A DNA stretch of 63,471 nucleotides, counting the filler, from Sluysia triapertura (Eukaryota): assembly GCA_046118255.1 (NCBI GenBank). It is 4 parts of 4 records of this genome, joined end to end, with 100 filler letters (N's around TTAATTAATTAA, not from the genome) between each part and the next. Parts side by side here need not be neighbours in the genome. Positions count along the whole stretch, not along the records: positions 24,217 to 37,787 come from JBJNIA010032047.1; 3 more parts are not named here. One strand, given 5' to 3'. The notes beneath the pieces are model-generated. The model ran no database searches. It was given only the letters and a program-made list of their open reading frames with translations, and was not told the origin of the DNA. The position numbers were made by a program, and so were the translations under genes. Positions 3,533-47,098 of the stretch are shown here, one piece after another; the first letter of the stretch is position 1; every line of letters starts with the position of its first letter.

Positions 3533-3656
3533 TATAAAAAGTTATAATTTAAGAAAATAAAGTAATTTAAGAAAATTACTAAAAAAAGTCGAAATAAATC
3601 CAATAAGTGATAGACATAAATTTACATATATTATTTTAATAATAACATAATTAGTA

Positions 3657-5474
3657 ATGCAGAATAAAAGAGTAGAGTTATTGAATAATTTTACACCGTT
3701 ATTAAATGAGATACGCACTTGTGCATATTCTGAATTATTTGGGAAACCGTCTCAGAATAATAAAGGTACTGAATTAGCAATGGATTTTAATGTAATTGAA
3801 TCCAAATTAAAAGATGGTATCTACGAAAATGAAATGGAGGTACTAAATGATATGTGGCTTATATATAATAATACTATGTCACATTATAGAAAAAATTCCA
3901 AGATATATAAAAGTTGCTCATCGATTTTTAAAACAATGCAACCTCATTTTGACAAATTAATGCAGGACAATGGATATTGTTGTGGCACGCAGCATTTTCA
4001 TTATACATCAAATAAAATATGCATTAAAAATAGTTGTATTATAAAATCTAATGCTACACATTATGTTATTGACAAAAAGCATAATCCAGAATTGTTTACA
4101 GATGTTGATTTAAACCAATATTGTTGCTGTGAATTATGTTACAAAAAAGCCGTGGACGAAAAAATTGCATTTTATATTGATGATTCAAATGAAATAACAG
4201 TTGAAAAAAGCTTATTTAAGTTGACCAAAAATTCAAAATTTCAAGAAACTTATATAAAATGTACAGAATGTAATATGTTGTGGCATAGAAATTGTGCGTT
4301 GGAGTTGAATCAATTATTTAATGATCAATTTTATTGTAAACAATGCAGTTTAAAAAGGGATCTATCCAATGAAAATAATTCTAAACAAGCAAAGGAAATA
4401 CCGAAATCAATTTTGAGTGACTATATTGAAAATGATGTGAATCGACTGTTAAACAATAATAATGTAGTCGAAAATCCGGTATGCATACGAATGTTGAGTA
4501 ACATGGAGAAAGAATTTGAAACATTAGAACGTATGAAGCAATGCTTTCCCGAGTTTCCATCATCCTTTAGATACAAAAGCAAGTCAGTATATGCTTTTCA
4601 ACAAGTTGAAAATAAAGATGTTTGCTTTTTCGCAATGTTTGTACATGAATACGAAGAATTGGGCCATATTTATATATCGTATCTGGATTCAGTACAGTAT
4701 TTTACACCTCGACATTTAAGAACCAATGTATACCAACAAATAATCATATCTTATCTAAAATATGTTAAAGAAATTGGTTACACTAAAGCGCTCATATGGT
4801 CTTGTCCTCCACACGAAGGAGATGATTATGTATTTTATGTGCATCCAGAACACCAAAAAACACCGACACAGAAACATCTAAACGATTGGTACGAATGTGT
4901 TTTGAACAAAGCGAAGGAAATGAAAATAATCGAATCATTTGATAATTTGTACAAGTATTTACAAGGCAACTATTTACCAACGAATATGTTTTATTTCAAA
5001 AATGATTTATGGCCTAAAAGAATTGAAACGATTTTAAATCAATTCATAAGTAAGAGTAATCAAAAAGACAGAAAAAGGAAACATGAAGACAATAATAATG
5101 TGAAATTTCAAAATTTGGATAATAAAAATGAATTGAACAAACTTATGGAAAAGGAAATAATGAAGGAAGGTTTCAATTATTTTGTGGTTACAATACAAAA
5201 TGAGAACGATGCTAAACAAATGACTCTAAATAATAAAAATAATGGTAATAGTAATATTATTAATAATAATAATGCAAAAGACAAATTCTTTCAGGTGGAC
5301 AATGCTGAAAATCGTTCAACATTTCAATTATATTGTCAAGCAAATCTATTAGAATTTTCTACATTAAGACAGGCTAAATATGCAACTTATCAATTCATAA
5401 AATCGATTCTGTCAAAATTTTATTATGTAAACGGTAATTGTTACTGTATTGCCGCTTCAAAAAAAACTTTGTGA
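3657..5474 (+). CDS. CBP/p300-like (KAT3) histone acetyltransferase core: degenerate bromodomain, RING/PHD (CH2) and HAT domain; intronless; lacks TAZ1 and KIX
   Basis: 605-aa ORF with p300/CBP signatures: GYCCG; CTECNMLWHRNC..FYCKQC; YISYLDSVQYF; LRTNVYQQIIISYLKY; IWSCPPHEGDDYVFYVHP..QKTPTQKHLNDWY; YFKNDLWP; LEFSTLRQAKYAT. Confidence 0.95.
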   Translation: MQNKRVELLNNFTPLLNEIRTCAYSELFGKPSQNNKGTELAMDFNVIESKLKDGIYENEMEVLNDMWLIYNNTMSHYRKNSKIYKSCSSIFKTMQPHFDKLMQDNGYCCGTQHFHYTSNKICIKNSCIIKSNATHYVIDKKHNPELFTDVDLNQYCCCELCYKKAVDEKIAFYIDDSNEITVEKSLFKLTKNSKFQETYIKCTECNMLWHRNCALELNQLFNDQFYCKQCSLKRDLSNENNSKQAKEIPKSILSDYIENDVNRLLNNNNVVENPVCIRMLSNMEKEFETLERMKQCFPEFPSSFRYKSKSVYAFQQVENKDVCFFAMFVHEYEELGHIYISYLDSVQYFTPRHLRTNVYQQIIISYLKYVKEIGYTKALIWSCPPHEGDDYVFYVHPEHQKTPTQKHLNDWYECVLNKAKEMKIIESFDNLYKYLQGNYLPTNMFYFKNDLWPKRIETILNQFISKSNQKDRKRKHEDNNNVKFQNLDNKNELNKLMEKEIMKEGFNYFVVTIQNENDAKQMTLNNKNNGNSNIINNNNAKDKFFQVDNAENRSTFQLYCQANLLEFSTLRQAKYATYQFIKSILSKFYYVNGNCYCIAASKKTL

Positions 5475-5757
5475 TTATTGCGACGATTATTGTACATCAA
5501 TGTATATTACACATGCTGAGGATTGCACTAATAGTAAAACATGCGAATATCCAGAATGCGAAGATATGAAAAAATTTATAGGTCATTTTCAACAACAATT
5601 ACTGATCAAGCAAGTTCGTTGCGAATACGATGAATGTGGAATTTGTCCATTTATGATTGCCAAGGCGAAATCACACGTGGAATTATGCACAACGGATAAT
5701 TGTGAAGCGACGTTACATTTTTTTCATATTATAATTGAACATTTAAATAAAAGTTAA
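5449..5757 (+). CDS. TAZ2-type zinc finger plus ZZ vestige; +1-frame continuation of the CBP-like ORF
   Basis: HAEDC..C..PEC..MKK..H..C..C.IC..H...C...C matches the p300 TAZ2 His/Cys pattern. It joins the upstream ORF if one A is removed from the A8 run at 5459-5466. Confidence 0.85.
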   Translation: MPLQKKLCDYCDDYCTSMYITHAEDCTNSKTCEYPECEDMKKFIGHFQQQLLIKQVRCEYDECGICPFMIAKAKSHVELCTTDNCEATLHFFHIIIEHLNKS

Positions 5758-21815: not shown

Positions 21816-23188
21816 TTACCACAAATATAAGTTTATGCTTACAATTTTTGTGGAAATTATTACTTTATGTTCCCAGATTATCTCTCTCTGGTACTCTTTA
21901 TAAAAGCGAAATAATCGTATCAATGATAAAAATAAGTTTAAAATAATTTTTTTACCACTAAGAAAAAATAAATAAAATTTAATTAACACATTTTTATTAC
22001 ATACCACAAATTGTTTATGTTTGAAATTTGAACATTCTATTGACTGGAGTTTGTTCTGTACTATACTCTGTTGCATCACACCGATCTTAAGTCTAAATAT
22101 ATTATCTAAAATATAAAATGTTATAAATCCAAAATCAATTCTTACATGCAATACCCAATCGTGAACAAACTTCCTAATAGACTTCCGTAGCTTCATTGAA
22201 CTCTTTGAATAGTTTCGTTAACAATCGATGATGTCGATAAGTGTTGGCCAGACATAAATAAATTAATTATTAAAACTCGAATTATAGTGAAACACTTTAA
22301 CATAACTTCTTTTATCTCTAAGATTGAATATACACTTGATCTCCAATTACGACTTTTCAAAGCATGATTCAATAGATGAAACAAATAAACCAAACTACTC
22401 TTATCTAATAAATCTGAAGAACTTACTAACTCGGGATCGACATATGTGATACTTAGGAGAGTTGATAATTTACTTCTATTTTGCTCACAATGAATCAATG
22501 ATTTTATGATTACAAAGAATTTCTTTTCGAACATTACAATTAAATTAACTTTTTCTTTACGCAATGATGGACTATGGATAGTTGACAGAAGATCTTTTAA
22601 CGCGTTGAAACGTTTCTGGTTAATTTTTCCATTTACATGAACTAACACATCATTTTTGGGGAGTTTATGATATATCTTCAAAAAATGATCGTTTTTGTGC
22701 AGATTTTTGCCGAAGTCATCAGATGCATCAAAGTGATTTAATAAAATGATTATAAACTTTATAATAAAACGAAAAGGATTACTTCGAACATTTATCATAT
22801 TATAACTTTCTAATAGGAAATCAAAATATGATCTTAACCAATTTCTAATTAAATCATTTGGGTTAACTCGTGTCAATGTTTCAATATCTGTTTGTTGTAG
22901 TTTATCACGAGAAGTAAATGTAATTTTATTATTTTGAAATACGCAGCGTTGACTGTACACAAGACATAGAACATTGAAAAGGTCTTCATTATTATAGATT
23001 TCTAAGTCATCTTTAGATAGTTTTAAGTTGTCTGATTAATTAGTTGAGGTTTGATAAGTTTGATTAATTTTCTGTTGAACTCGCTGGACTGGTAATTCTT
23101 CTCGTTCAGGTTTAGTTGGCGAAATTTCGTGGCTAGATAACGATACTAAATGTCGATCAACTTTTGTAGTGTCTAAAATTTCTTCCAT
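21816..23188 (-). pseudogene. Long intronless ORF of unknown family, interrupted by one stop and one frame change
   Basis: ATG at 23188 is in frame with ORF 22193-22960 apart from one TAA at ~23037. ORF 21816-22196 overlaps its stop (ATGA). About 455 codons in total. Confidence 0.5.
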
Positions 23189-24116
23189 GAGGATTAATTG
23201 ATCTTTTCACGATTAGAAATCCAGAAATAATAAGACAATTAAAAATTTTATTTTTTACCAAATTGTTAAAAAAATGTCTAATCTTTTTTGTTGTTTATCT
23301 GAAGATAATTGTTGTGCCAACTTTTCTTTTTATTGGCGATTTTAATTTAACTATTTAATAATTTAACTATCTTTAGTTATGGACCGACGTTTTGGTTGGC
23401 TATCTTGTCACGACTTCCAATTGATTAGACTGAATAATATCAGTCGTGATTGCAACATTTTAATTTTTATGATTAACCATCATCAATATTGACGCATTAA
23501 TAAAGTAGTGGACAGGGTGTCAATGTTGATGATGACGACGACTAAAATGATTTAGATTATGTTTATAAAGATAGCTTGATGATTGACAATAATAATAATA
23601 ACAATAATATTGTTATTATTATATAAAGAATAACTCGCATAAATCTTTCTTTTTAAAATTACACGAGCTTTTTTTTCGAATTCTTTATTCCTTCTAACAT
23701 ATTAAATAAAAAAGAAAAGAAAAACAATTGGTATTATGTGAAGGAACGACGGTAACTTGGTATACTGTGCTTCAGTTATCGTTGTTTCTTCATCATTAAA
23801 GAAATAAATTCTTTAAAACCATATAAAATTTGTTTTGGATTTTTGAAGATAAAAATGATTTAATCTTTAAGTGAAACAAAGGATATTAAAATAAATTCTT
23901 GAGATTTATTAAGGTTTAAAATTAAATACGAGATTCATGCTTTGAATATAATGGTTTGAAAGGCTTGTTAAAAGGTTATGTTTTATTAAATTTTTTAAAA
24001 CAAAATTACAAAATAAATGTTTGCGTATTTACTATGTTGTTGTAAAAAGTTGAGAATGATTATGTGTAGATGAAGTGAGTTTCACTTAGTGTAATTGAGT
24101 CGAGGTTGTAACATAA

Positions 24117-24216
24117 NNNNNNNNNNNNNNNNNNNNNNNNNNNNNNNNNNNNNNNNNNNNTTAATTAATTAANNNNNNNNNNNNNNNNNNNNNNNNNNNN
24201 NNNNNNNNNNNNNNNN
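24117..24216. other. Assembly gap with six-frame stop linker
   Basis: 44 N + TTAATTAATTAA + 44 N. Confidence 0.98.
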
Positions 24217-24217
24217 T

Positions 24218-25864
24218 TTTACCGCATTATATATGCTCTGGACTATAATTTATTTATTTCAAGTTCATAAGAGAATACGTGGTCCCACGAATAATAGAAA
24301 TCTAATCCCATTAATGTTAATTACAATGGTTTCGATAATGCAATGCCAAGAACACTCATTTAAGACAGAGCATTTCGAGTTTTATAATAGTAATACAGAA
24401 GTGAAAATCAGAACATTGAACGAAAATATTCATGTTAAAGTTGTATGCTTAAAAGCTGCTAGACTTAACTTTAGCTCATGGGTAATACACGAAAATTTTA
24501 TTGACAATGAACTACGATATCCAGTTACAATATGTTCAGATATGTTACCCACTGAGGATAGACACATCTTAATAAGATATAGACATTCATCAAAGTATAT
24601 GCATTTCGCGATCAAAGGGATTAGAAAAAATTTAACAATTATAGAAACATTAAAAAATGACCCCGCCTTAGTAATATTAATTGTGGCAGCAATACTTTTT
24701 GTAATAGCTTTAGCAATAGTGGTATTGACTATTATTATGTTTGTCTCAAACAGATGTCGTTATCCATGTCTACCACATAATAACAATAATGACGACGGTG
24801 ATGTGTATACAATGCCACATCAAAATAATTACGCTCCTCCACCTGGGATGCCATTACTTCCACCACCAATTTATGAATATGTTTCGAATAATCATTCACC
24901 ATTTATTTATGGAGATTGGCATATGACGCAACTTTGGTCGACCTTATTAACTTGTCTTTGTCTGTCATGTGTTTCAAATGCATGTATGATAGATTTAAAT
25001 TCAGAAAATCATATATCACAAGATTTAACACCTCGGATATCTATAACTTCAACACAAAGGAATATTATAGTAGCAGTACAGGCAGACAAATTTAAACTAA
25101 TTAATCTTTATTTGAAGTGCTGTTTAATGGGATGGTGTCAGGAAGAATCAACGTTGAACAAAAATATTTTTTATTGGATAATTTCGTGTGACAAATTATT
25201 AGAATTTCAGTTATTCAATATTACTTTAACAATAGAACTTGAACATGATCCTAAATATAATGCAAAAATAATTCTAATACGGCATTATAGGATTAGGACT
25301 CAACCATTTATTTTCAGTCAATCACAAAAAATTATCGAATTTCCTATGGTAATCTATCGATATAATGGTAATATTATACGAATAAACAACCCATTAAATG
25401 ATAATGCATTGATAATAGCATATACATTACGCGAAGTCATAAATTATGGATTAGTATTTCCAAAGGACACTATGCGAATATACGGATATCCATATATTAA
25501 GGTTACGTTTTTTAGTATTTGGATCATACGTGATAACGAGATTAGTAATACGACTGAATTTTGGCCGCTTATTAGGAAATTTGATGTTCAAGTACCTGTT
25601 ATCGATAAACATGAAAATGATATAGAATTAAAGGTAGTAGAAAAAATTAAGAAGAATAACACTACGGATAATTCCTCTTGTCATACGTTCGCAAATATAA
25701 GTAAAATAATTGCAAAACATCCAGCAGTGCTAAAATCTAATATTAATATTATTGTAATAATGAACTACATTTTAATAATAATTCAGTTAGTAACATTACT
25801 TATAAACTTCATAATACCTAAATTCTATTTGTTTATGAGGCGCCAAGCTCATATTTTCATATAA
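24218..25864 (+). CDS. 5'-truncated membrane polyprotein: tandem signal-ectodomain-TM units, env-like position
   Basis: Frame is open from the gap (FTALYMLWTIIYLF..). Signal-like LIPLMLITMVSIMQC; TM ALVILIVAAILFVIALAIVVLTIIMFV; Pro/Tyr tail with PPPIY; second signal-like MTQLWSTLLTCLCLSCVSNA; multiple N-x-S/T sequons; C-terminal TM. At least 543 aa without introns. Confidence 0.8.
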   Translation, partial: FTALYMLWTIIYLFQVHKRIRGPTNNRNLIPLMLITMVSIMQCQEHSFKTEHFEFYNSNTEVKIRTLNENIHVKVVCLKAARLNFSSWVIHENFIDNELRYPVTICSDMLPTEDRHILIRYRHSSKYMHFAIKGIRKNLTIIETLKNDPALVILIVAAILFVIALAIVVLTIIMFVSNRCRYPCLPHNNNNDDGDVYTMPHQNNYAPPPGMPLLPPPIYEYVSNNHSPFIYGDWHMTQLWSTLLTCLCLSCVSNACMIDLNSENHISQDLTPRISITSTQRNIIVAVQADKFKLINLYLKCCLMGWCQEESTLNKNIFYWIISCDKLLEFQLFNITLTIELEHDPKYNAKIILIRHYRIRTQPFIFSQSQKIIEFPMVIYRYNGNIIRINNPLNDNALIIAYTLREVINYGLVFPKDTMRIYGYPYIKVTFFSIWIIRDNEISNTTEFWPLIRKFDVQVPVIDKHENDIELKVVEKIKKNNTTDNSSCHTFANISKIIAKHPAVLKSNINIIVIMNYILIIIQLVTLLINFIIPKFYLFMRRQAHIFI

Positions 25865-26217
25865 GGATTATAAGTATTATAAATGTTACATAGTTGACCA
25901 TGTGTAATAGTACCCCTATTCATGTTGGGTCATATGAAATATTTATATAATAATAAATGGTTGCAACATTATAAATACTGTAAAATACTGTAAATTAAAT
26001 ATATTAGGTTAGGTTTAATGTAAAACTAGTAAGTATAGAATTAATAGAAATAAGATTAAGTTTAAATTATATAAGTAAAGTGTTTTTGACTGTATGTGAT
26101 GGTCACCATCCATTTCGAGTCATACACGAATTAAAATTGTTACTTAAAATATATTATGTATATATTTCTATTTAAATTATTACTTTATTATATAATTTTA
26201 TTTTTTTTAGTTAAATC

Positions 26218-26679
26218 ATGTCATATTCAACCTGTGCCATTTGCCTGAAATCTATTCGAAACTATTACGCTCGTACCTTTCCTTGTTTTCATAGGTTTCA
26301 CTTTTTCTGTCTATATGATCTATTTAACTCTTCCCCAACTCCTTTACCTAATTGTCCACTTTGTAGGGTCACGATCATGGAATGCAGTATTTTCTATAAA
26401 AAGAAATTTCGAAGAACTTACACTTTTTCGGTTAAATATATCACCGATAATGCAGAAGAGCCCGGAATTGATATTTATCAACCGGCACCTATAGTTAAGA
26501 AAAGAAGGTTTAGTAGAAATGGGTGGGTTAGACCTCCCCCGAATTTTCCAAAGAATCTGACTAAATCTCAGAAAAGAAATAGAAGGAGACGCCAACTTAA
26601 GCATTTTTATAAAAAACAAGAAGAAAATTTGCCGAGACCTCTAAAACCTTTTAATCCTTTTTTGAAGAGGAGATTATAA
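26218..26679 (+). CDS. RING-H2 zinc finger protein with a basic (NLS-like) C-terminus; putative E3 ligase
   Basis: CAIC..CFH.FH..C..CPLCR (C3H2C3); KKRR and KRNRRRR clusters. Polypyrimidine-AG at 26201-26210, just before the ATG. Confidence 0.88.
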   Translation: MSYSTCAICLKSIRNYYARTFPCFHRFHFFCLYDLFNSSPTPLPNCPLCRVTIMECSIFYKKKFRRTYTFSVKYITDNAEEPGIDIYQPAPIVKKRRFSRNGWVRPPPNFPKNLTKSQKRNRRRRQLKHFYKKQEENLPRPLKPFNPFLKRRL

Positions 26680-26795
26680 ACTTCCTAAATTACGTATTTT
26701 TATTATACAAACTTAAAATTCACAATCATATTAAAATAGCTTACTTATTATTATTTTTATGTACTGTTTTATTTTTCTTTTGTCTCATTTAACAG

Positions 26796-28094
26796 ATGCA
26801 GGCGAAGATATTAAACCAACAGAAGAACTTCTACGTGTATATCGACAGGTACTGCCACGAGAGTATCACTCCTGCTTTCTTTGGCGACTCTGTTTCGACA
26901 CCTAATTCCTTGAAATCCGAGTTAAATATTAATCTAGCCACGCACATATTTTCTTTGAAACCGGAATCCTCTTTTATTACTTTAGACGGTCTCAGTCAGG
27001 TCCCTGAGACTATCGAATCCCTATATTTGGTTGTGGCTAGGGGAATAGTTAAGGTGACTTTAGTTGATACCGGTGCTCCTTATTATGTTCGTGTCCATAG
27101 CTTCTCATCTTTACATTTGACTAAATTGCATAAGAAATGTACTGTACTGATAGAGGCCACCGAATATCCGACGTCTGTAGCACTGCTTTTTCCTTTACCT
27201 CTGTCTACATTCAAGTCTTTCCTTCCTAACCTCTATAAAGACGACATCGCTAATTTGGAACGCTGGAGAAAGGGGACTTCATTTACTCATGTCCCTCCTA
27301 TGTTGATTTGTGATGAGGAACGTCTAGTTTTCATTTCTTACTCATATGCATTCGATTTTAAAGATCATCCCCATATTACACAACTTTCTTGCACTCCATA
27401 CTCAAGACAGTTTCATACGAACATTAACATTAAACCCCGCCTTCGTATAAGAAATTTCCTCAGAGATATTCAAGAGATGAAAGATTCCGATATCTCTGAG
27501 GCTAAGGATATAGATGACGTACGTCCTTTTCTTTTGGGTCACCTGCATGATAAGATCATGGTGTCGTTGAACCCATGTCTTATAAATCTACCTTTCGGTT
27601 GGTTTAAGGGAGTGATTAACCTGACTAATCACAACCTTCTGTCTTATACTACGAACGATATAATCCAAAAGGGACGTCAGACATTTCGTTTATTATATCC
27701 TATTCCGCCGCGAATGACGTGTATGAGGATGGCCTCCGAATTGGTACCTTTACTTAATCTCATTCGTGAAAAGGACACTCTTTTTATTTCTAATTGTTCA
27801 ACCCCTCCTTCTCTTTTTTCTCTTCCATCTACTTCTACACTTTTCGATACTGTCGTGGCACTTCCAACGATCAAATCTTTAACTCCACCACCATCATCAT
27901 CCTCTGCTACAAAACAATCGTTATCGAAATCACCGCCGGTAATGTCATCACAAACTACGACAGCAGCTTCGCCACTACCATCATCGTTTTCCAGTACAAA
28001 AACTACACATAAGACTTCATCCATGAGTATTCTACAACGAAAAAGACCGTATTACTGGGACAACAATGATAACATTGATTTAGATGATTGTTGA
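26796..28094 (+). CDS. 432-aa hypothetical protein; possible degenerate cupin/JmjC-like fold; S/T/P-rich tail; NLS
   Basis: Long intact intronless ORF with higher GC. LYLVVARGIVKVTLVD and SLNPCLINLPFGWFKGVINL resemble cupin/JmjC strands. RKRP near the C-terminus. The acceptor ..TTTAACAG abuts the ATG. Confidence 0.8.
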   Translation: MQAKILNQQKNFYVYIDRYCHESITPAFFGDSVSTPNSLKSELNINLATHIFSLKPESSFITLDGLSQVPETIESLYLVVARGIVKVTLVDTGAPYYVRVHSFSSLHLTKLHKKCTVLIEATEYPTSVALLFPLPLSTFKSFLPNLYKDDIANLERWRKGTSFTHVPPMLICDEERLVFISYSYAFDFKDHPHITQLSCTPYSRQFHTNINIKPRLRIRNFLRDIQEMKDSDISEAKDIDDVRPFLLGHLHDKIMVSLNPCLINLPFGWFKGVINLTNHNLLSYTTNDIIQKGRQTFRLLYPIPPRMTCMRMASELVPLLNLIREKDTLFISNCSTPPSLFSLPSTSTLFDTVVALPTIKSLTPPPSSSSATKQSLSKSPPVMSSQTTTAASPLPSSFSSTKTTHKTSSMSILQRKRPYYWDNNDNIDLDDC

Positions 28095-28207
28095 TTTTGT
28101 ATTTATTATTTTTATATATATTTTCATCAATTTTGTCTTATTATAACATTATTATTATTCAATTTTATGTTATTTATCGTTTGATCTGATAATTTTTTTT
28201 GTTTCGA

Positions 28208-28250
28208 GATTCGAGACGAATCTTCCCTAATGGGGAAGTAAATGTAAATA
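28208..28250 (+). mobile_element. Candidate Ty3/gypsy-type hairpin + polypurine tract + LTR start (TGT at 28243)
   Basis: GATTCGAGACGAATCTTCCCTAATGGGGAAGTAAA|TGTAAATA resembles the 3' junction of gypsy elements (..TTCG.GACGAA.T...GGGG.AG.A|TGTAA). LTR end not defined. Confidence 0.5.
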
Positions 28251-28499
28251 TTAAAAAACAAATTAAAAGATTTAATTAGACATTTAATTATAAAGTACAA
28301 ATTTAATGAAACTAGATAATTATTTTAATTATTTTAATAAAGATAAAATTTTGTTACAAAGTATACTTTTTAATTAATAAAGATAAAATTTACAAAAATA
28401 AATTATAATTTTAGATAATTAATAGATAAAAAATTAATTAAGAAAAATAAACCTTTAATTTTAAGTAATCTAAATCTTTTAATTTATCAACAATAGAAA

Positions 28500-28854
28500 T
28501 TATATATAAATAGCTGAAAAATGGCTAAAAGCACACACAAAAAATTTATAAATCTTTTTAAATTCTTTGGAACAAACTTTCGTTGAGTGAATTAAAATTG
28601 TTGTATTGGAACCTTGGGAGATTATTGCACTGAAAAAATATTGGATCGATATTATTAGAAAGGAGATTTTTTGAATCGAGAATTTTTGGATTTGGATCGA
28701 TATTATTAGAAAGGAGATTTTTTGAATCGAGATTTTTTTAGATTTGGATCGGTATTATTTGAAAGAAGAGTTTTGGATCGAAACTAAATCGGATAAAAAT
28801 TGTTGTCTTTTGGAAAAAGAACTATTGTACCATTAGTAAGCTATTTATATATAA
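28500..28854. repeat. 16-bp inverted repeat (TTATATATAAATAGCT) enclosing a 51-bp tandem repeat
   Basis: 28500-28515 is the reverse complement of 28839-28854. Tandem units start at 28641 and 28692, with a partial third at ~28744. Confidence 0.85.
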
Positions 28855-29342
28855 GATTCAAACAATAATAAAATTGTTTTTAAATCCTACTTAAACTTAT
28901 ATTGTTTTCATACTCAAGTATTCCACTTGAGTTAAACTCATTTCAAAATTTATTGTAAACATTAGGAAAATATCCTAAATAGTTTTGACTTATTATTATT
29001 AATACTGTTGAACATTTTTATATCGCGTTTGATTTATTTTTATACTTATAAAATTTGTGACTATAGCTATTGTAGTAAATAAAATTTCATAGGATACTAC
29101 GAGTATCAGTCGTTTATTATTTATTCATTGAAGTACGTAAATTAGATTTGTTTGGAAATTCATATTACAACTTGATAAAGATAAAAGACCCTCCGTTTAA
29201 GATTTAAGGCATTCTTTTCGTAGCAATTTTTCATTAACCTATAATTAAGTCTTCCGTCGGAAATAAATCTTAAATTATAGGCGAACCCAATAAGGACTAA
29301 AATCATAATTGTTAAGTTATTAAATAAAGAAAACTTGAACAT

Positions 29343-29921
29343 ATGGAATTAATGCAAAAGTTTTTTGATTTAACATATGATTTAAAGAAAACAAATAATG
29401 CATTTGAAGCTTTTAATGGAAAATATACTGAAATTCATGAACCCGAAAATTTTTATGTTAAATAATAAATTATTTACAGTTGAGAATTCAGTCGACACTG
29501 AATAAAATACATAAAGAATTAAAGAATCAAACTAAAAATGATAATCGTTTTAAAATAATGAACGTAGTAATCAGAAAAGCTGACGATTCAATTTACAGAA
29601 CATTAACTAAGTATGTGAAATATATTTACGATTTAGATCGCTATAAAACCGCACTTTGTACATAAGGTTCGACGGATTCAGGTCAATGCATCAAATATGG
29701 TCGAAAGTGCGTATATCCGCATGGGATTTTTGATTGTCTACTTCACCAGAATTTTTGATGACTATGGCGAACTTATTTCTAACTTATTGTCAACCTTATA
29801 TGCAACACCAAATACGTCAAACTCATCTATTAGTTGCTACCTATTCACAACAAACCAACAAGATCGTGTTTTGTACAATCACGAATATTCTGATTCCATT
29901 GACAATTTTACGCTAAAGTGA
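29343..29921 (+). pseudogene. Hypothetical gene or pseudogene with possible micro-introns
   Basis: MELMQKFF..EPENFY joins ORF 29480 via a 23-nt GT..CAG segment, then needs a frame change into ORF 29697-29921. No domain recognised. Confidence 0.25.
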
Positions 29922-32459
29922 AATCATTACATTTTAATATTTTCATTTTATGATTATGATTATATCTTTTATTTTTGTTCAGGAAAATTTGTGAAAATAT
30001 GACCGTGGCATCTTTAAGTACAAATAAACATTTTTATTTATCGTATCCCTATCATATTAATCAAAATTTTCATTTTTCTTCAATTTTTATCATCAATATA
30101 TGCTGTGTCTTATATTATGAGTTTCTTAATGAAAACGTATACATCTAATAAATTAATTTTATCATTTAAATTCAAAGCTAAAAATAAAGCCCCAAAATCC
30201 TTACACACACGCATAAAACATCATCTTAAACACATATCAAAACGTACCATAACACCTCATCAATTCCCATATCTTCCTAACCAAACATTAACTTCTAAAA
30301 TAGAAATTCATAAAGTTTTTAAATAAGTTTAAACTATTTCTTTCATTTAATAACACTATTAAACTTTAACTTTATTGACACTTCAGAACCGATAACAAGT
30401 TCAAACGTTAACTTTAAACAGATTTCAAGTTTAGAACAAAAATTTGAAAACCAAGAATTTTAAAAAAAGATGGAAATTTCAGGAAGAATGTAAGAATCTG
30501 CTTGTTTTTTTTATAATTTATATAATTTGGACAGATTATTTAAATTATGCTAAAGTTACGCTTGTTTAAATAATATGTTCAATTTATTTAAATATATTTA
30601 TTACAATTTTTATGTTTCTGAAAAATTTAAAAATTTTTTAAATGTTAATAAAGAATATTCAAAATTCATAATACGTACTATTAATGCACATAAATCTGTA
30701 TATTATCAAGAAGTTACCAATCTGAGACTTATATGCCTTTAACTGTTTATAAAAGTAGAAATTGTTTAAGAGATAGTTCGCGTGATGTTGGTAAATTATT
30801 TTTGCAATCAAGGGTGTCATATTTTTTTATTATCAAGTATCCTAGAAGAATTACAGTGAAAATACGGACGGGATTCTACTAGGTGGTGCTATATTACCAC
30901 CATGATAACATATTCTAATAATGTCATTGATGTTAGTCTAGTTTCTCGTTATATCTGGCAATTATTTTGTAATTCAAACGCTCGTCGGTGTTAATTCATA
31001 ATGAAGTAAAACGTTTATGTGATTCGAGAATATTTTCTATAAGATATTAATTATTATCTTGAAACTTGGATCACCTATCTTTTTAATGCATTTAATGGGT
31101 GATCTAGGTGTATATTGACCACAAGTACTTAATTTTTCCAGGTGTAATATTGCTAAATAAAAATATTAAAATTTTTTCAAGAGATATTTTAAACTTTCTG
31201 AGTTAGGTGATGAAATATTTATATCAAATGGTTGTATGAGTAAATAAATGAGGGCAGTACAAGTTCTCGCTTAGCATACGGAAGGGTTCTATTTCTATTT
31301 TTTGAGAAAATGCATACTATCAGTGAAGTAGTGTTTTATTGTATTTGTTGATAAATTTAAGTTATCATTAGACAGACGATTATTTTGTCGAAAAGAACTA
31401 AAATGCGCAAAGAAAAAAAGGGCTCGTGTTAATAGCTTTTTTAATTTCTGTAATAATATACCTTTTCAGATATCGTAAACTTAATTATGGATGTGAAATA
31501 TATTTTTAGTTAAAGTGTTTCATAAATACATCATGTTTGGTCTTTATTTCGTGATTAACGTTGATAATTTTAGAATTAAAGTGCCTTGAAGCATAGTATG
31601 TAAGAATAATTGATATTACAATTCTAACAAAATATAAATAATTAAAATTAAATAAAACCACAATTTCCAATAAACAATCAACACTAAAAATTTTGTGGTT
31701 AAGATATTAGTGTGTCCATGTTTAAGTCGAGGCATCGCATTATTATCTGAATAAACATGTTTAAAAGTGAATTTTAAAAGCTATAAATTATCTTACATTT
31801 CAATTTCAATTATTTGTCATTTTAAAATGTAGAAATGCCCTGACAAAACTAATAGTTAATGCAACACAGCCTTACTTCTTATTAAACACATAAAAAAACC
31901 TTTCTGAATCGCTGGAAGAAATATCTTTTGTTTGTCTTCGTAGATCTTTAGATTTATACGAAATGGAACTTTTAGTTCAATTACTATATCAAAAATATGC
32001 TGAAATTCAAGACATAGGTTCTAATCATCAAGTAATGCTACCTTCTACTAAGGGATCATGTAAAATATACACTCAACAGAAACACTTATTAATAATCTTT
32101 TATCAACATCCTCAAACAAACCTTTGTATTTTTCCAAAGAGTCGCAAATAGTACACAAAGATTTACGAATATTTTGAACAAGATGCAGATGTTTGCAAAT
32201 CCAACATTTTACCCTTCTATCGAAATACATTCTAAAATCTTTTCTCTGTGTTTGTTACTTATTTTCATTTCATATCACATTGAATTACTTCATTAGTTTA
32301 TACGTGGGTAACAAATACGAAATGGGTATTTTATTTTTAACAAATCAACTAGTTTTCGGAAGCAGAGAAATATTGCATGTCTTATGCGTAGTTATGCATA
32401 GTCTCCCTTAATAATATGCTTAGAAATCTTAATTATAAAACTAAAAAAATATTTCTTAC

Positions 32460-35400
32460 CGATAAACCAAAGCCAAAATGTTCTGTAAAGTAGCAATATC
32501 CAAGCTACAATAATCGGCACTATTGCTATTGACACTGCTTTTGTCACCAATATTATCAACATCATCATCACCAGCAGAACCACCTGACAACACCTTTTTT
32601 CTTGATTCTATGGCCAACATCTCATTTTGAATAGCTTGTTTACAAAGTGCTGTGGCCACTTCGTAACGACCATTATTTGAGTATTCAGTTATCAAAGAAT
32701 GCAACGTTTTCAAATGATCTGGTAATTCGTAGTTATAGTTTGTGCTTGGATTTGAACTTGAATTTGTGTTACATGTAGTAGCAGTGTTAGAGGTTTGGTC
32801 ATTTGTGGAAGATGATTGATGTGAACCATGTCGATTTCCTGTAAATTCAATTTTAACTTGAAATGAATGTGAAGAAAATTTGCGATTCTGCGAATAAATT
32901 TAATGAATTAGAACAATAGCACCGTATGCATCCACAATGATAGCCAATAAAGAAAATTTATTGAATTTTCGAAAAATATATTTAGTTACCAACACTTCAA
33001 ATATAAAATAAGGTTATTAAAGCATTCACTTGCACAATGTAACTTGCTTAAATGTGGAAAATTCTGGTTTTAATGTCATATTGAAAAAGATTTAAAAGAT
33101 GTAAATCCTGTTGTTTTTTAAATTTTCGCCATAATTGCCTGACAGTGAAAATACCACTACGAATAGATGGTTAGAATCAATGTCGTATAGTGTGATTTTA
33201 AAATGTTTAGAGTACGTAAGATTTCGGAATTTCAAGCTGAAACATTGTACGATGTACTACATAATGCCGAATGTCCGCTTGTATGGGTTAATATTGAAAA
33301 TTTGGTAATGTCGATCAAAACGGCTATTATCCATTGAAGACACTATTCGAGTTTAGAAATTGTGATTTCGTGATATAATGAAAATATCATATTTGGTGAT
33401 TCTGTATTTCATAAACATGATATGGAACCAGTTAATATCTCGTTAGAGAAAGTAACATCAGAAAAGAATTCATTATATATTAAATAATCAAGATTTTCTT
33501 CTATTTTATTGCATGAGTTATTTTGTATAGAACTGTTAGAATGATGTAGTTTTGAATATGTTATTAATTACGAAGGTGTTGTTGCATAATGATGTCGCTT
33601 TTCTAAGGACTTATGACACGCTTTTCAAAACCATAAGTTTGTATCAATGTAATAAGCCTGTGATAATAACCAAAAAAAGCACTTTAAATACCATTTTAAC
33701 AGTTTAACATTTTAAGCATTTTAAAAATATGGTAAATTGTTGTTAGTAAATTGACTATTTAGGAAACGTTTTCAACGAATAATAGCATCCATTAAAATAA
33801 GAAAAAGCTTCTGAGGCGACATCTTAGGCAAAACTCATTAAAATAGATCTACCATGTCAAATCCGTAAATACTTATTTTATCTAATACAACACATTGTTT
33901 TTAGTTGCGTGTTTGATGTATTTGGGGGTATCTAAATGTACCCGTCACCATAGTAATAAAAATATTACTCTATTATAATTTACAACATGTGTATATCAGT
34001 ACAGTAAGCAGAAATTGTACTTATCAATCTATATTTAATGATATATCATTTAGCCTACACATAATTGTTCAGATGTATAATTTTTTGAAAAGGATTATCT
34101 TTTGGTGGCGAAACGAAGAATGTTTAACAAATATTATCAATGTAAAGTACATAAAATCGTAGATATGAATGAATTGTCATATAAAATGAAACATAAATTT
34201 GTGTTTTAGGGAAAATGTTGCAAACGCTTAAAAGACATTTTTGTTTGTACCTGCCTAAGTAGAGAAATAAATATGCAATGAAAATTTTCCACACTGATAT
34301 GCTGATAAAAGAGCATGTAATATAAACATTAAAGTTTTGTTCATAAAATTACATTTTCGCACTGTTTTTAATAAAAATATATAAATGCAGCCTTAGTTGC
34401 ACAACACATGGAAGAATAATCTCACTTTGGTGGAGGTAAATCAGAATCTATATTAATGTTAAACTTATATTTATACAAGGTTGAAAAATGTATTTTAAAT
34501 TTATATTAGTTACAATTATAATTATTATAACCTGAAGCATTTTGGGAGCGCCGCAAATCACAATATGTTTCTTCCGTTAATTGACCCGATATCGTAGACT
34601 CTGATAAATTAATCGAATCTGCCAATTGATTACTTGAATAACTTTGTGTCATTGGTTCGTCATATTTTATCAATTCCTTAAGATATAATTTTTATAAACG
34701 GTAAAAAAGTATAAAAATTACTTATAATTAAAGTTAAAAATATCATTTGTTTATATTTTGATTATTTTTTCGATATATATTGTTACTTACAATAAATCTT
34801 TCAGAATTTATTGACATTATTCTTAATAACTTCTACATACACGTAAAAGGCATCATCTAAAAAGTTAAACTTTATACGCCAACGAAGTACATAAACAAAA
34901 GATTTTGTTTCTAATTACAGATAAATTCGGCATTTTTAATAATTTTTAAACATTTTACAAGATATAAAACCTTTAATGATTAAAATAATAAAAATCTAAT
35001 TTCCTAGCACTTATTTTATTTTAAACTATTTTTAATTTTGTAACATGATTAATGAATAAATCAACATTGAAAATAAAGTTAAAAATGCACAAAAACATTT
35101 TACATTCAAATATATTTATTCTAATCACTATTTCGTACCACAACTTTTAATAACTATTTAACTATATTAAATTTTTCTATTCAACATCTAAAATTAATAA
35201 CAGTATGTCAAAAGTTAAAATAAATTTGATAAAATCGAAGTTTCATCAAGCATTAAATTAAAATGTTTGAATCGATTTTAATTGGAATGGAAAATACCGT
35301 TTAGTTGTATATTCCAACTTATTCGCGTTTTGAACATATTTTTTTCATTTTGTTAATTAAATACTGATTATCCTTATACCAGGTCGTACAAAAAATAAAA

Positions 35401-35977
35401 AACTTCAACTGAGCCCAAAGAACGAAAATAATTTTCACTTTAGTTATTACTTAATAAAGTTGCTTTATATTTGAAAACCTTCAGAAACCACCTACTTTTG
35501 CTTTATATTTAGGTTATATATTACCACAATATCTTTCATTTGTGAACTTACCAAGTTTAAACTAAATGTGTAACTTACCAATTTCAACTTATAATCTTTA
35601 ATTAGATTATCTAAATCAATATTTCGTTCTTCAGCTTCACTTAAGCGATTCTGTGAAGCCGTAATCTCCTCGCGAAGCCAAGAATTTTCTTCAGACAATC
35701 GCATAATCATTGAATTTAATTTTATTGTATTTGCCTCAATGACATCCAAATGATCCATAAATGTCAAGATCATCTCAGCATCCTCAATACCCAATAAAAC
35801 TTTTTCTAATGGATGTTTAATAGTTTCATCAATACTATCAATATTGACTGAATTGTAATTACATTTATCGAAAGGATTAAAATCTACACCAATTTTATCT
35901 AGGCAAGTAGATCGTAACGATTTCAGTGCAACCAGAGATGATTTAGTGATTCCAATTATTTCGTTGGATTTCTTCAT
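32460..35977 (-). CDS. KLC: Kinesin light chain, exons 1-3 (35977-35579, 34676-34532, 32838-32460); later TPR exons not found
   Basis: Heptad region LGIEDAEM..HLDVIEA..KL..MIMRLSEENSWLREEITASQNRL and TPR1 [47 protein letters not shown] match KLC consensus. GT-AG introns have consistent phases (0, 1). Confidence 0.9.
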
Positions 35978-37096
35978 TAAGCTCAATAAAACATAATGTA
36001 AGTATAAAATCAAAAATAAATGTTGAGATCAAATTAAAATCCTTCAAAATAATAAGTTAAAATATAAAATAAAAGATAAATTATATATAGTTACTTCGTG
36101 AGATTTTATATTCCATATACACTAAATTTGTGTAAATAAATTAACACTTATTATATAACAATTTGAATATAAAATATTCAAAGAAAAAACTTATAAAAGA
36201 TAGTATTTATTATTTTTTATTAGTATTTTTAATTTTAATGAAAATAAATATTTTTCAATTATTATAAAATAAATAAATTTATTAAAACAAACTGAAACCA
36301 ATTTATTTAAACTAATTTGTCAACATGAATTATTGCTCATATGTAAAATATGGTTATATAATTAAAATCAACATTAATATAAAGTACTTTAAAAAGTTTT
36401 TTGCATATGTAAATGAATGTAGTTGATTTTTTACAATTTTTATATATAAACAAATTATTAAATAAATGTAATGTAAATTTATCGCATTATTTGTGATAAT
36501 TATATTTATCATTCAAATATTTTGAAATGTCTAATTCTTTACATTATTAATAATAGTAATTGGTGACTCATAGAAGCGTTTTAATTACGTATGTAAATTT
36601 TAATAAAGCAAGCAAAGACTAACACTTAAACCAAAAGCTTTTACCATTTCTAAAAATACCAATTTTGATATAAATTTTAAATTTCTTACCATTTATAAAT
36701 TTATAATTAATTTACGTAACTACTTAATTAAAATATTGAAACTTCAACAATATAAGAATACCCTGTAAACAATTTTTATTAACGATTGCATAAATTAATC
36801 CAAATATTTTCGAAATGTGTAAAATTACAATTGCTATTGCAAAAAATTATAAAATTTAAAAAATTAATACATTATTTAAAAATCATAACTGATTTTTATA
36901 AATACACTTGTTTTTATCAAAGTGATATTTAAATATCAAAATTTTTAGATTTGAAATAATCTTTTTGAAATAAATGTTTTTTTATTTATACAACATACTT
37001 TGACCCAGTTTTTGATAATCTAATATAAAAAAATTGTATAAAATTATGCATATTAAACAAAATTATTAATCATTAAATTACTCTTATTAAATTGAA

Positions 37097-37393
37097 ATGC
37101 ATGATGAATGTATGACTGTACAATCACTGTTAGCAAAAACGATTTCAATAATCGAATCAGATCCACGTATACCAACAGGTGTTCGTAAATATTACTTAAA
37201 CAATTTGAAACAACTCAATTTAGATGATATTCATTCAATTAATAATTATTATATACTCAACGAAATTTTAAGTCATCAATATAGAATTCTGTTACCAAAT
37301 CGAGCAAGAAATAATCTTTATTTATTGCGTTATCAAATTGGTTTAACATTTAAAATTAAAGCTTCCGATCAACGATCAGGACCTCGGACATAA
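37097..37393 (+). CDS. 98-aa hypothetical protein, divergently oriented from KLC
   Basis: ATG-initiated ORF with protein-like composition in very AT-rich flanks; no domain recognised. Confidence 0.35.
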   Translation: MHDECMTVQSLLAKTISIIESDPRIPTGVRKYYLNNLKQLNLDDIHSINNYYILNEILSHQYRILLPNRARNNLYLLRYQIGLTFKIKASDQRSGPRT

Positions 37394-37787
37394 TCGAAAT
37401 TAATATAAACAAAATCAAATCGAAGACTTTCACATATTTCAAACAATAATGGAAATGTTTCTATGTACTTAAAAGAGTATGTATAATATAAATTTTCCAA
37501 AAAGCATAATTTTTAATAAAATATAAAAATATATTTTGATATTATCATTTTTTGAAATAGATTATTTTTTCCATTAAATTATTACTTTTTAACTTCTGAG
37601 CTATTAAAAGTGTATGTTTGAGCTTTATAAATCAATGTCTGTTAAAAGAAATATAATGCTGTGTAAATTTTTATACGAGGCGAAATTATAGGAACATAGT
37701 GTTGGGATTCGTGAAGGGTAAAGGTAGATATAAAGGTTTAAGACTCAGGATAACATAATAAGGTGAACGTTATTGAGGAATTGAGAT

Positions 37788-37887
37788 NNNNNNNNNNNNN
37801 NNNNNNNNNNNNNNNNNNNNNNNNNNNNNNNTTAATTAATTAANNNNNNNNNNNNNNNNNNNNNNNNNNNNNNNNNNNNNNNNNNNN
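37788..37887. other. Assembly gap with six-frame stop linker
   Basis: 44 N + TTAATTAATTAA + 44 N. Confidence 0.98.
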
Positions 37888-44077: not shown

Positions 44078-45515
44078 CTAAATTAATATAAATATAAATA
44101 TATTTATCAAATAAAGTTTAATATTACAGTTTATTTGTTATTATGTATGAAATATTTCTGAAGAAACAGCGAATTCGACAGAAAAACGTTCATTTTAATC
44201 ATAATCGTACCATACTTAAATTTTGAATGTATGGCCTGTGCATAATATTTTGTTTATATATAAATCTTGTTTTGATAAATAAATGAATTTAAACTATAAA
44301 CAAAAAATAACATTGTAGTTATTCCCAGATTCACATCGTGGTATGGTTCGTTATAAACAATTTTCACTATAATAGATATAATATCTATTTATTTAACCAA
44401 TTAAGACATCACTTCTAAACTTTTAATTTTAATATTACTTTCGTAATAATTTAGCATTTTATTTTATTGATAATAATTAACATAAACATCAATATTTTAC
44501 GATATAATTACAGATCATATAGTATAATGTTATTCAAAATGGGTAAACATAATATAATGTTATTAGTTTTTAATTTCTTATCAAGCACTGGAAGATATTC
44601 CAAATATACTCTAAAAGATATCTCAATAATGCTTAATGCGCAAATACAACAATTAATGATGTTTAATAAGTGAAAAAATGTTTACAACAATAATAGATTT
44701 AAGTAAATATAAATGGTAGAAAATTTAATTATTATTAAATTAAAATAAATGAGAGAATCTTTAAAAATTGCAATTCATAATGCAAAATAAGATTAATATA
44801 CTTAAAATGCCCTCTTTACATACCTTACTAATAGAGATACCTACAAAAAATAGCAAAATAATTATGTCAAACAAAAGTATTACTTATTTTAATATAAATA
44901 CAAACTACAAAAAGAGTAATTTCACAGAGCATCAAGTTGTATTGAGTTTTAATATTGTTTCTTTAATGTAAATATTATTCAATTTATTTCGTTCAAATAA
45001 TCATAAGTTTGCTAAACATTTCATTAAAAATTACAAACACAAATAATCTAATTATTCAATTTTAATTGGTTTGGCAGGTTTTTCTAGCTATATACGCATT
45101 TTCAATTAATATTAATTTACAATATTATTACAAGGTATCAAGATTCTTTATCGAATTAGTTTGTAACAATTTCGAAAACGAAGAATAAGGTTTTCTTTCG
45201 TACAAAATAATAAGTTCGAATTTTTAAAGCTAGAATCAGAGGATGCAGCAGAATTCCATCAATGTGAGTTAGTTTAGTGTTGAATTTGTCGAGCGAAACT
45301 CAATTATTTAATTGAAGCGCTTTTATGACATTTTAAATATATACAGTAAATGAATAATTGTTTAAATAAATACGCATATATTTATTTTAATAAGTACAAT
45401 TTTAATTTTATTGAATCGCTATTGATTTGCCGGTATGCATTGTTTAAAATACCTTATGATAATTAAAATTAATTTTTTTAAATTTTAAATTAGTTTAGAA
45501 AAATATTCTATCGCA

Positions 45516-47098
45516 ATGTCAAATAATCTCAAAAGAGTCATATTGACTGTGATACAAAAATATCAGTTAATTGAAATGAGTGAAAAGAGTAAATCCACAT
45601 CGAAACTTTCGGAAGAATACGGAGTTGGTGCTGAAACAATTCGAGATATAATTAAGCAAAAAAGAAAGTTGAAGGAGTTTACAAGAGATTGTGATAGTAA
45701 TGCAGGTTCTTTAACTCGGAAAAGTATGAAATTTCATCATATGAAGATTTAGATACAGGTATGCTTAAATGGTTTAATCAAAAACGAGCAGAAGGAATGC
45801 CAATTACAGGACATAAAACCAAATTCTTTAAAGATTCACTGGGATTAAAAGACGACTTTAACGCATCTTCTAGATGACTAACCAGATTTAAGAAACGTCA
45901 TGGTATCCGTGAGCTTTCAATCCAAGGATAACGCATTAGCCAAGATGTTGACGCCACTACTAAATTCCAGATTGAATTTGAGAAATATGTTGAAGCAAAT
46001 GATTTGAAACCCGACCAAATATATAATGCTGACGAGACAGGCTTATACTGGAAGTGTTTGCCTACAAAGACACTTGCTTCATCTAATGAATCATAGACTT
46101 CAGGCCACAAATAATCTAAAGAACGTATCACAATCATGCATCCTGAACTCATAAAATGGAAAAGCGAAAAGCCAAGATCATTTAAAGGAACAGAAATAAA
46201 GAATTATCATGTTGGCTACTACAATCAAAAGGAGGATGGATGGACAAAAGGATCATTGAATATTGGTTTAAAAAATGGGTCCCAGAAATTCGAGTTTTTT
46301 TAAAAAAATAAAGAATTGCCACAGAAGGCAGTACTGGTATTAGATAATGTTCCTTGTCATCCAAAGGAAAGCATACTAAAAACAGACGACGCTCTTACAG
46401 CTGCAAAATTTTTACCACCTAATGTAACATCTTTAATTCAACCTATGGATGAAGGAGTTATCTCTTTAATGAAACGCATTTATCTCCTTAAAAGCTTCTG
46501 CAGTGAAGATTACGGTGTTGGATGCAACATACGGAGCTGTTAAATCATAGAACAAAAATAAGCCAATAACACTAATTCGATCGTAGTTGAAAATTTTGTC
46601 AAATGTAGAAAGTAACGTTTCTGACTTTATCGAACCTGAGATATGTAACATTTCAGAATTATGTGAACTAATGAAAATTTTAAATGGCTTTGAAAATGTT
46701 GATGACCAAAATATTGAAAAATGGATAGAATTTATTTATCTGATCCAGGATTCCACATACAGAGTGACACGGATATTATTTCAAATCTAATTTCAAATCC
46801 AAATGAAAATGAAAGTGAGGTAGAAGATATTATCAATCGTATTGGTCACAACACGGCAGTGACTTCTGTCGATCAATGGAGCTTCGACCATAACGATGTA
46901 ACATCTTTAAGAAAAATCCGAGATGATATTAAAAAGTAATTGAGAAATTCACTTAAACAAACCAAAATTATCGATTTTTTAATAAAACATTGAATGTATT
47001 TTCATTGCTTTGTATTATACAAGTATTTTGCCTTATTATTTGCTGATTATCCGTGCGACCCTCACCATCATTAGTCCGAGTAATAGGGAGTTTACTCT
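45516..47098 (+). mobile_element. pogo/Tigger (Jerky-like) DNA transposon, inactivated
   Basis: CENP-B-type HTH (KRVILTVIQK..LSEEYGVGAETIRDI), [49 protein letters not shown]; many stops and frameshifts. TIR-like end ..GAGTAATAGGGAGTTTACTCTA at ~47098. Confidence 0.9.

Follow-up and report, generated by a model that had tools for sequence, protein, structure and literature searches.

Which kind of genetic element carries three intact, co-oriented open reading frames (ORFs) in close succession at a contig end of the Sluysia triapertura genome? We addressed this question in a stretch of 63,471 nucleotides (nt; hereafter the window) from assembly GCA_046118255.1, in which four parts of four records are joined by filler and positions 24217-37787 come from JBJNIA010032047.1. 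The original prediction had seen at 24217-28960 the candidate 3' end of a retrovirus-like long terminal repeat (LTR) element carrying a polyprotein in envelope (env) position and two spliced accessory genes. What we find is a real, highly amplified mobile family with an unusual cargo, the class of which hangs on sequence lost in the gap to the left of the cassette of ORF1, ORF2, ORF3 and the two spacers between them. On balance, and by a slight preference, we read this cassette as a complex LTR retroelement's 3' end, of which the gag-pol half would be located within that gap or on its far side. As pol and paired LTRs are unseen, the element is not entered here as a member of Ty3/gypsy.

High repetition and purifying selection

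Three public sequencing runs (X1, X2 and X3) share words with the stretch, and their contigs were aligned to 24217-37787. Over 24217-27840, a span that includes ORF1, both spacers, ORF2 and most of ORF3, summed contig depth in X1 reaches 16,000-72,000, compared with 25-27 in six host bins. The resulting ratio of about 800-2,100 is not a copy number, as the tool itself warns of summed depth, and our rough estimate is hundreds to about a thousand copies. A 7,050-nt contig of the same run equals 30683-37732 without any difference, at a depth of 18. Since the X1 records spread over identity classes from 99% to below 90% (816, 1,740, 2,906 and 1,739 records), the family is also diverse. The variant sites of X1 recur in X2 and X3 (share 0.06) at about 1/250 and 1/1000 of its depth; these two runs are possibly traces of the same organism and lend no independent support.

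Variation within the family is constrained by its proteins. Among the 40 best-supported of 772 variant sites, 33 are coding and 26 of these are synonymous, against a neutral expectation of about 33% (p 9e-8); the listed sites are synonymous in 18 of 24 cases in ORF1 and 8 of 9 in ORF3, and none lies in ORF2. Not one of the 12 best-supported of 76 indels falls inside an ORF, though ORFs make up 67% of the span, a count to be read with the caveat that AT-rich spacers favour indels. The cassette is an amplified mobile family whose proteins are under purifying selection, and a multi-copy family with intact, selected ORFs is what a Ty3/gypsy (errantivirus-like) element would present. A host operon is unlikely because of the roughly 1,000-fold depth and the synonymous bias. 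From the earlier claim of a recently active complex LTR element, we can therefore retain that it is mobile, recently amplified, multi-gene and unlike a host operon, while its LTR nature is the matter weighed below.

Three open reading frames and their predicted products

The cassette is laid out as follows, with the evidence for each feature in brackets.

24117..24216, no strand: spacer of 100 nt (N44, 12-nt linker, N44) that cuts the element on its left
24218..25864, plus: ORF1, predicted to be a precursor of three or more type-I membrane proteins (hydropathy, cysteine and sequon scan)
24218-24259, plus: ORF1, hydrophobic end of a cut unit (hydropathy)
24299-24346, plus: ORF1, first signal-like segment, followed by a predicted ectodomain of 104 amino acids (aa)
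24659-24751, plus: ORF1, predicted transmembrane (TM) segment (hydropathy)
24863-24874, plus: ORF1, PPIY in a cytoplasmic tail (predicted topology)
24923-24985, plus: ORF1, second signal-like segment, followed by a predicted 250-aa ectodomain
25736-25837, plus: ORF1, last predicted TM segment (hydropathy)
25865..26217, plus: spacer 1, part of the repeat unit and covered by diverged copies, with a T-rich tract and AG (26209-26210) at its end
26218..26679, plus: ORF2, predicted RING-H2 domain and basic tail (Pfam PF13639, PDB RING sequences)
26680..26795, plus: spacer 2, 116 nt, with a pyrimidine tract and a CAG end abutting the ATG, a predicted splice acceptor
26796..28094, plus: ORF3, 432 aa (Atlas features, profile search, fold searches, homolog P0004)
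about aa 34-135 of ORF3, plus: cupin-like beta domain (cupin rows top two weak fold searches)
about aa 177-334 of ORF3 (27324-27797), plus: DEDDh/DnaQ-like domain, likely without catalytic acids (Atlas, profile)
last 97 aa of ORF3, plus: variable tail rich in serine, threonine and proline, with 36 serine or threonine residues (composition)

All three ORFs were found intact and without internal introns where the original prediction had placed them: ORF1 with 548 codons (543 from the first methionine) and open at its 5' end, ORF2 with 153 aa and ORF3 with 432 aa. Composition alone would yield such open frames with probabilities of 4e-21, 2e-5 and 3e-11, respectively, and the GC content of ORF2 (35%) and ORF3 (40%) compares with 27-30% in four host exons. 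As ORF1 stays open back to the spacer at 24117, one of three alike (identical ones stand at 37788 and 50240), the contig begins inside it. The companion claim, that ordinary host genes are broken by introns, did not hold: uninterrupted host ORFs exist, one CBP/p300-like of 607 codons and another of 280, and intron absence alone is therefore little proof.

The polypyrimidine-AG sites foreseen before ORF2 and ORF3 are present, ending at 26210 (7 nt before the ATG) and 26795 (0 nt). By pyrimidine tract they fall within the best 2.5% and 7.3% of 2,246 YAG sites, so that both are good, yet unexceptional, predicted acceptors. AATAAA or ATTAAA occurs in each spacer. Spacer 1 also holds a stable stem-loop (26084-26127, z -2.6) upstream of the ORF2 acceptor and just 3' of a TATATAA near 26068, possibly a promoter or RNA element.

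Hydrophobic segments span residues 28-41, 148-178, 242-256 and 507-540 of ORF1, and a further one is cut at its start; predicted luminal parts hold 8 of its 9 N-glycosylation sequons, and a predicted cytoplasmic tail holds the PPIY motif. Such a layout would fit a precursor that signal peptidase processes into several type-I membrane proteins, and the earlier description as a membrane polyprotein is borne out by hydropathy, cysteines and sequons. Homolog searches gave no match at near length and, at longer length, none to E 0.1, which is weak evidence; no relative and no fold was found, nor any detectable kinship to known fusogens. The AlphaFold single-sequence model is poor (predicted local distance difference test, pLDDT, 31), and sequence searches assign no env family (F or gB). 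In Atlas features the last unit has class II fusion families as neighbours, at scores of 0.75-0.78 that do not reach the chance line, and a class II fusogen was accordingly rejected; CUB-like or internally repeated ectodomains, suggested by eye, had weak support (2 and 13 of 500 shuffles) and no Pfam match and are not claimed here.

For ORF2, the earlier RING E3 assignment stands as a predicted ligase. All eight zinc ligands of the C3H2C3 pattern are present at 26233-26364 (C6, C9, C23, H25, H28, C31, C46, C49), PF13639 is matched with E 1.2e-8 (35.5 bits, cut-off 27.3), and 26 PDB RING sequences are matched at E<=0.01. The best of these is a herpesvirus RING (E 1.2e-4), with cellular RINGs nearly equal in score. 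The 98-aa tail is strongly basic, with 28 lysine or arginine residues against 6 aspartate or glutamate and clusters at 26497 and 26572; one arginine run presumably resembles lentiviral Rev, a likeness for which the PDB search gave no support.

ORF3 required a revision. The cupin-like claim is kept for part of the protein, where fold searches returned nothing significant and we retain as a lead the recurring cupin-type rows over residues ~58-135; a DEDDh domain, likely dead, is added to it. In Atlas features ORF3 lies beside DEDDh, RNase T, arenavirus nucleoprotein and Exuperantia exonuclease folds (0.84-0.89, a lead only), with all ten best family matches within one family or clan. Independently, a two-sequence profile matches a single PDB entry at E<=10, the PolC exonuclease domain 2P1J (E 0.037); the AlphaFold single-sequence model is poor (pLDDT 32). 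The second sequence of this comparison, P0004, comes from a 1,964-nt Logan contig, aligns with 25% identity over residues 10-324 (E 3.9e-19), has little of the serine/threonine tail and is the only real relative among 1.84 billion proteins. A near-length homolog search gave no match, and P0005 (E 7e-5) was rejected as a chance resemblance of 37 aa in a bacterial repeat protein. By eye, the motif I strand is without D-x-E in both proteins and acidic residues are missing from the motif II region of ORF3; these motif positions derive from the 2P1J match and typical motif spacing, and the placement of motif I is uncertain, as D-E-E stands just before the strand. On weak but concordant leads, ORF3 is likely a fusion of a cupin-like domain with a DEDDh exonuclease fold that is catalytically dead. 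Homolog searches of viral contigs, metagenome contigs, phages and PDB sequences revealed no further relatives of the ORFs, nor did Pfam and PHROGs with whole ORFs and domains.

Candidate 3' end of the element

Two further features follow ORF3.

28198..28242, plus: double hairpin (28198-28220, 28222-28238) and purine tract GGGGAAG(TAAA), candidate polypurine tract (PPT) and 3' cis-element
28243..29340, plus: repeated non-coding segment from TG, candidate 3' LTR (X1 depth; right end uncertain)

The hairpin, GGGGAAG and TGTAAA sit where they had been reported, with the hairpin in fact double. It is stable (z -3.3; 1 of 200 shuffles as stable) and forms the sole tandem GC-containing hairpin locus on the plus strand of the window. 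As candidate PPT, GGGGAAGTAAA precedes the TG at 28243, the putative LTR start, and forms the last arm of the hairpin; the window has two sites of the type GGGGAAG-TAAA-TG, of which this is one. In contigs of other copies, 27821 and 27901, at the end of the exonuclease-like domain, are joined to 28202-28208 (sides of 20 and 29 letters, weak), which suggests that the hairpin block belongs to the family.

Beyond the TG, the DNA is repeated in X1 rather than single-copy, which removes one possible objection to an LTR. Depth is 506 at 28064 in the variable tail of ORF3, 493 over 28294-28746, 847-981 at 28851-28955, 195 at 29025, 1,324 at 29227, 60,667 at 29279 and 7,295 at 29327, with the host at about 26. 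Up to 29227 the segment thus stands at some 8-50 times the depth of the host, and around 29279 the excess is far larger; the DNA following the TG is about as repeated as this copy's own subfamily. It contains 2.8 tandem copies of a 51-nt unit (28641-28781); tandem repeats are usual in U3 regions. One reading is an LTR of about 1.1 kb with a subfamily-specific U3 and a conserved R-U5 near 29070-29340, where the 29070 edge derives from bin means; another is that the very deep block at 29279 is an unrelated short repeat. An Rfam scan of 23000-31000 at E<=5 gave no ribozyme or other family. Further on, the DNA of 29340-30680 is weakly repeated, has diverged single-copy relatives in X1 and holds short, broken frames (29340-29462, 29465-29665, 29637-29921) that have no Pfam match; a peptide at about 29340-29460 resembling Mutator-like elements by its motif was discarded, as Pfam gave no support.

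Weighing the LTR interpretation

Taken together, several observations support an LTR retroelement: the purine tract and TG at the 3' end (one of two in the window); a depth after the TG close to that of the ORF3 3' end (493 vs 506) and up to twice as high, as a subfamily LTR would have; intron-free ORFs with acceptor-like sites just before two ATGs; and the 51-nt tandem repeat inside the segment. Published precedent adds to these, in the capture of ORFs downstream of env by LTR elements (PMC6431247) and in the ORF3s of rotifer elements (PMC5408684).

This leads us to the points that weigh against it. No reverse transcriptase (RT), integrase or gag was found among the window ORFs scanned, and neither a second copy of the candidate LTR nor an inverted partner lies within the window. 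The purine tract is short, includes one T and is paired within the hairpin. An LTR end at 28960, as originally proposed, is contradicted by a contig joint from 28953 to 29070 and by depth continuing to about 29340, and there is no convincing TG...CA end in the window, the best inverted match (29478, 8/8) being by our estimate near chance in AT-rich DNA. The TATA and AATAAA motifs invoked downstream occur over 28243-29400 at chance level (AATAAA 8 vs 4.7 expected, p 0.08; TATA 7 vs 7.0). X1 is possibly the very sample from which the window derives, which, along with the caution on summed depth, bears on the repetition argument. Finally, the last ectodomain of ORF1 (250 aa, 5 cysteines) is far smaller than the Gc of Atlas virus (498 aa, 30 cysteines; PMC9094657) and lacks the cysteine-rich class II ectodomain of about 450-500 aa expected before the last TM in an element of that type, so that "env" is a merely positional name for ORF1.

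If the LTR interpretation is correct, a full-length RNA from the 5' LTR would be packaged and reverse-transcribed, with the plus strand primed at the purine tract before the TG at 28243, and spliced sub-genomic RNAs using the acceptors at 26210 and 26795 would express ORF2 and ORF3. Signal peptidase would cut ORF1 into several surface glycoproteins, and its PPxY tail, of late-domain type, could recruit Nedd4-type ligases for budding or trafficking. ORF2 might act as a nuclear RNA-binding RING-H2 ligase that licenses export of unspliced RNA, an idea modelled on Cer1 CERV (PMC10309623), or that removes a host restriction factor. The ORF3 pseudo-exonuclease may bind element RNA and shield it from 3' trimming or small-RNA silencing, as the existence of the inactive DEDD derivatives Maelstrom and EXD1 (PMC5408684) would suggest.

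A bolder version assigns the cassette, as a 3' half, to a new invertebrate lineage of complex enveloped retroelements or endogenous viruses with hundreds or more copies; ORF1, as a surface glycoprotein precursor of several units, would be unrelated to F, gB or Gn-Gc, and it, a Rev-like RING protein that binds RNA and an anti-silencing cupin-pseudo-exonuclease would each come from a separate spliced RNA. We give it little credence as a whole; if true, it would offer an invertebrate parallel to lentiviral accessory-gene architecture and a new kind of envelope.

Alternative explanations

Membership of another cargo-rich mobile class (Penelope/Terminon-like, a tyrosine-recombinase retroelement, Helitron-like or a large DNA transposon) seems unlikely to us; the double hairpin would then be a 3' processing or termination signal, with no PPT. 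The cargo of Terminons comprises DEDD exonuclease, TM and coiled-coil ORFs, and their terminus is a hammerhead fold with reverse-complement telomeric repeats behind it (PMC6431247); 28186-28243 is loosely type-I hammerhead-like, with CTGA upstream, hairpins joined by GAA, then UA, and one CCCTAA in the second hairpin. The hairpins at 28198-28238 nevertheless depart, by our reading, at several fixed positions from the hammerhead core, and TTAGGG occurs in the window at chance frequency (11 vs 10.5 expected), as does the single CCCTAA. Terminons also have their RT in the 3'-terminal ~6 kb (PMC6431247), whereas the visible 4 kb before the hairpin hold three ORFs, none of them an RT. The ends have no inverted partner in the window. 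Helitrons have hairpins at their ends too and terminate in CTRR about 10 nt after the 3' hairpin; here the hairpin is followed by TAAATGTAAAT and the repeat continues at equal depth. Rather doubtful as well is an endogenous or partly extrachromosomal DNA virus with nuclear splicing, its glycoprotein, RING and RNA-binding genes being ORF1-3 and the high depth arising from many integrated or episomal genomes. The gene set does look viral (a PPxY glycoprotein precursor, a stand-alone RING and an exonuclease-like domain with viral clusters among its Atlas neighbours), and each spacer has its AATAAA or ATTAAA. Variants from 99% to below 90% identity in one run would, however, better fit a long-resident genomic family than one infection, and the assembly joins the copy without a break to a host gene that by eye resembles kinesin light chain.

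Two explanations would dispense with mobility or with the genomic setting. An amplified host gene cassette or trans-spliced operon, encoding a surface protein, an E3 ligase and a Maelstrom-like pseudo-nuclease, is very improbable: the 116-nt ORF2-ORF3 spacer with an ATTAAA 65 nt before the acceptor is similar to the spacers of operons, and other long intron-free host ORFs exist, but the roughly 1,000-fold depth with many diverged variants extends over non-coding spacers, the GC of ORF2 and ORF3 exceeds that of host exons, and the 3' end has a purine tract and a repeated segment. The least probable of all is that a real cassette stands beside host genes through an assembly artefact, as a repeat of a co-sequenced organism or by mis-joining. 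The contig does start inside a repeat, and no listed X1 contig (8 pieces of several thousand) bridges ORF3 to unique DNA; on the other hand, X1 pieces identical to the window run from 29470 to 37732 with small gaps at single-copy depth, and the window copy departs from the majority at many sites, which is expected of a separate genomic copy.

The remainder of the window

The window is AT-rich animal DNA (GC about 25%), and a Pfam-type scan finds host-type content in it: CBP/p300-like, C-type lectin and Tau-repeat genes and decayed DDE_1 transposons. The CBP/p300-like gene (3651-5757) is strongly diverged and intron-free, has bromodomain, PHD and KAT11 regions and goes on in another frame at about 5431-5757. 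Minus-strand exons at 32456-36028 resemble, as judged by eye, a diverged kinesin light chain gene, so the contig continues into host DNA. Two decayed pogo/Tigger-type transposase remnants (CENP-B_N, HTH_Tnp_Tc5, DDE_1) occupy 45489-46540 and 48631-49417, a SWIM-domain ORF at 55750-56247 is possibly left over from a Mutator element, and a fold-back of about 850 nt at 59821-60677, with long inverted arms 82% alike, is probably a miniature inverted-repeat or fold-back transposon. The contig ends before two gaps (37354-37787 and 24040-24116) are GC-richer and purine-rich; the former, with a depth of 10,736 in X1, is another high-copy repeat, and the contig ends beside gaps have no significant similarity to the candidate LTR.

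Relation to known systems

In invertebrate LTR elements, pol is usually followed by no more than one gene. Among the papers listed by full-text literature searches, none was seen to describe a glycoprotein precursor, a RING-H2 protein and a cupin-pseudo-exonuclease in series. If our interpretation as an LTR element is true, the family would have a new envelope or accessory-protein family, next to the F, gB or Gn/Gc types described in PMC13524379 and PMC9094657, and two likely host-control proteins. Such repetition would make it a major component of the host genome. Were pol absent, it would possibly be a new kind of mobile DNA and matter more.

Among enveloped elements, the errantiviruses (env-carrying Ty3/gypsy) share the membrane glycoprotein ORF in the 3' part and are multi-copy and intact across invertebrates, but their env is F-type or gB-type (PMC13524379), whereas ORF1 would comprise several short ectodomains with internal signal segments and is followed by two genes. 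Atlas virus and the Belpaoviridae, with a Gn/Gc env, derive tandem glycoproteins from one precursor (PMC9094657), as ORF1 is predicted to do. The planarian giant gypsy element Burro resembles our family in its strong repetition, with thousands of Burro copies, and in ubiquitin-pathway or RING-related cargo, and differs in holding cargo and env inside one giant polyprotein before pol (PMC6431247). Terminons share DEDD and TM cargo, and end in RT, hammerhead and telomeric repeats (PMC6431247). CERV of the Caenorhabditis elegans element Cer1 is a spliced accessory protein in env position that exports unspliced element RNA, and hence a functional model for ORF2; the consulted portion of PMC10309623 describes no RING finger in it, and the likeness is one of description alone, without sequence comparison.

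A further comparison is offered by rotifers, in which LTR elements have DEDD-type exonuclease or TM ORF3s, typically expressed from spliced messages, and in which single DEDDy or TM ORF3s are shared with Terminons (PMC5408684). The bdelloid elements Juno, Vesta and TelKA thus resemble our family in DEDD-type exonuclease or TM ORFs, theirs lying after pol, which is unseen here; they differ, as described in the same source, in having one ORF3, DEDDy (RNase D-like) with intact catalytic residues, and low copy number, compared with three ORFs, a likely dead DnaQ/DEDDh-like domain with a cupin-like one, a RING gene and very high repetition here. It is the DEDDh revision of ORF3 that ties this cargo to the DEDD-type ORF3s of rotifer LTR elements (PMC5408684). 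Accessory ORFs of this general sort are already known from rotifer and planarian retroelements; if our interpretation is true, three separately expressed downstream genes and an unclassified glycoprotein precursor would widen the design space known for retroelements.

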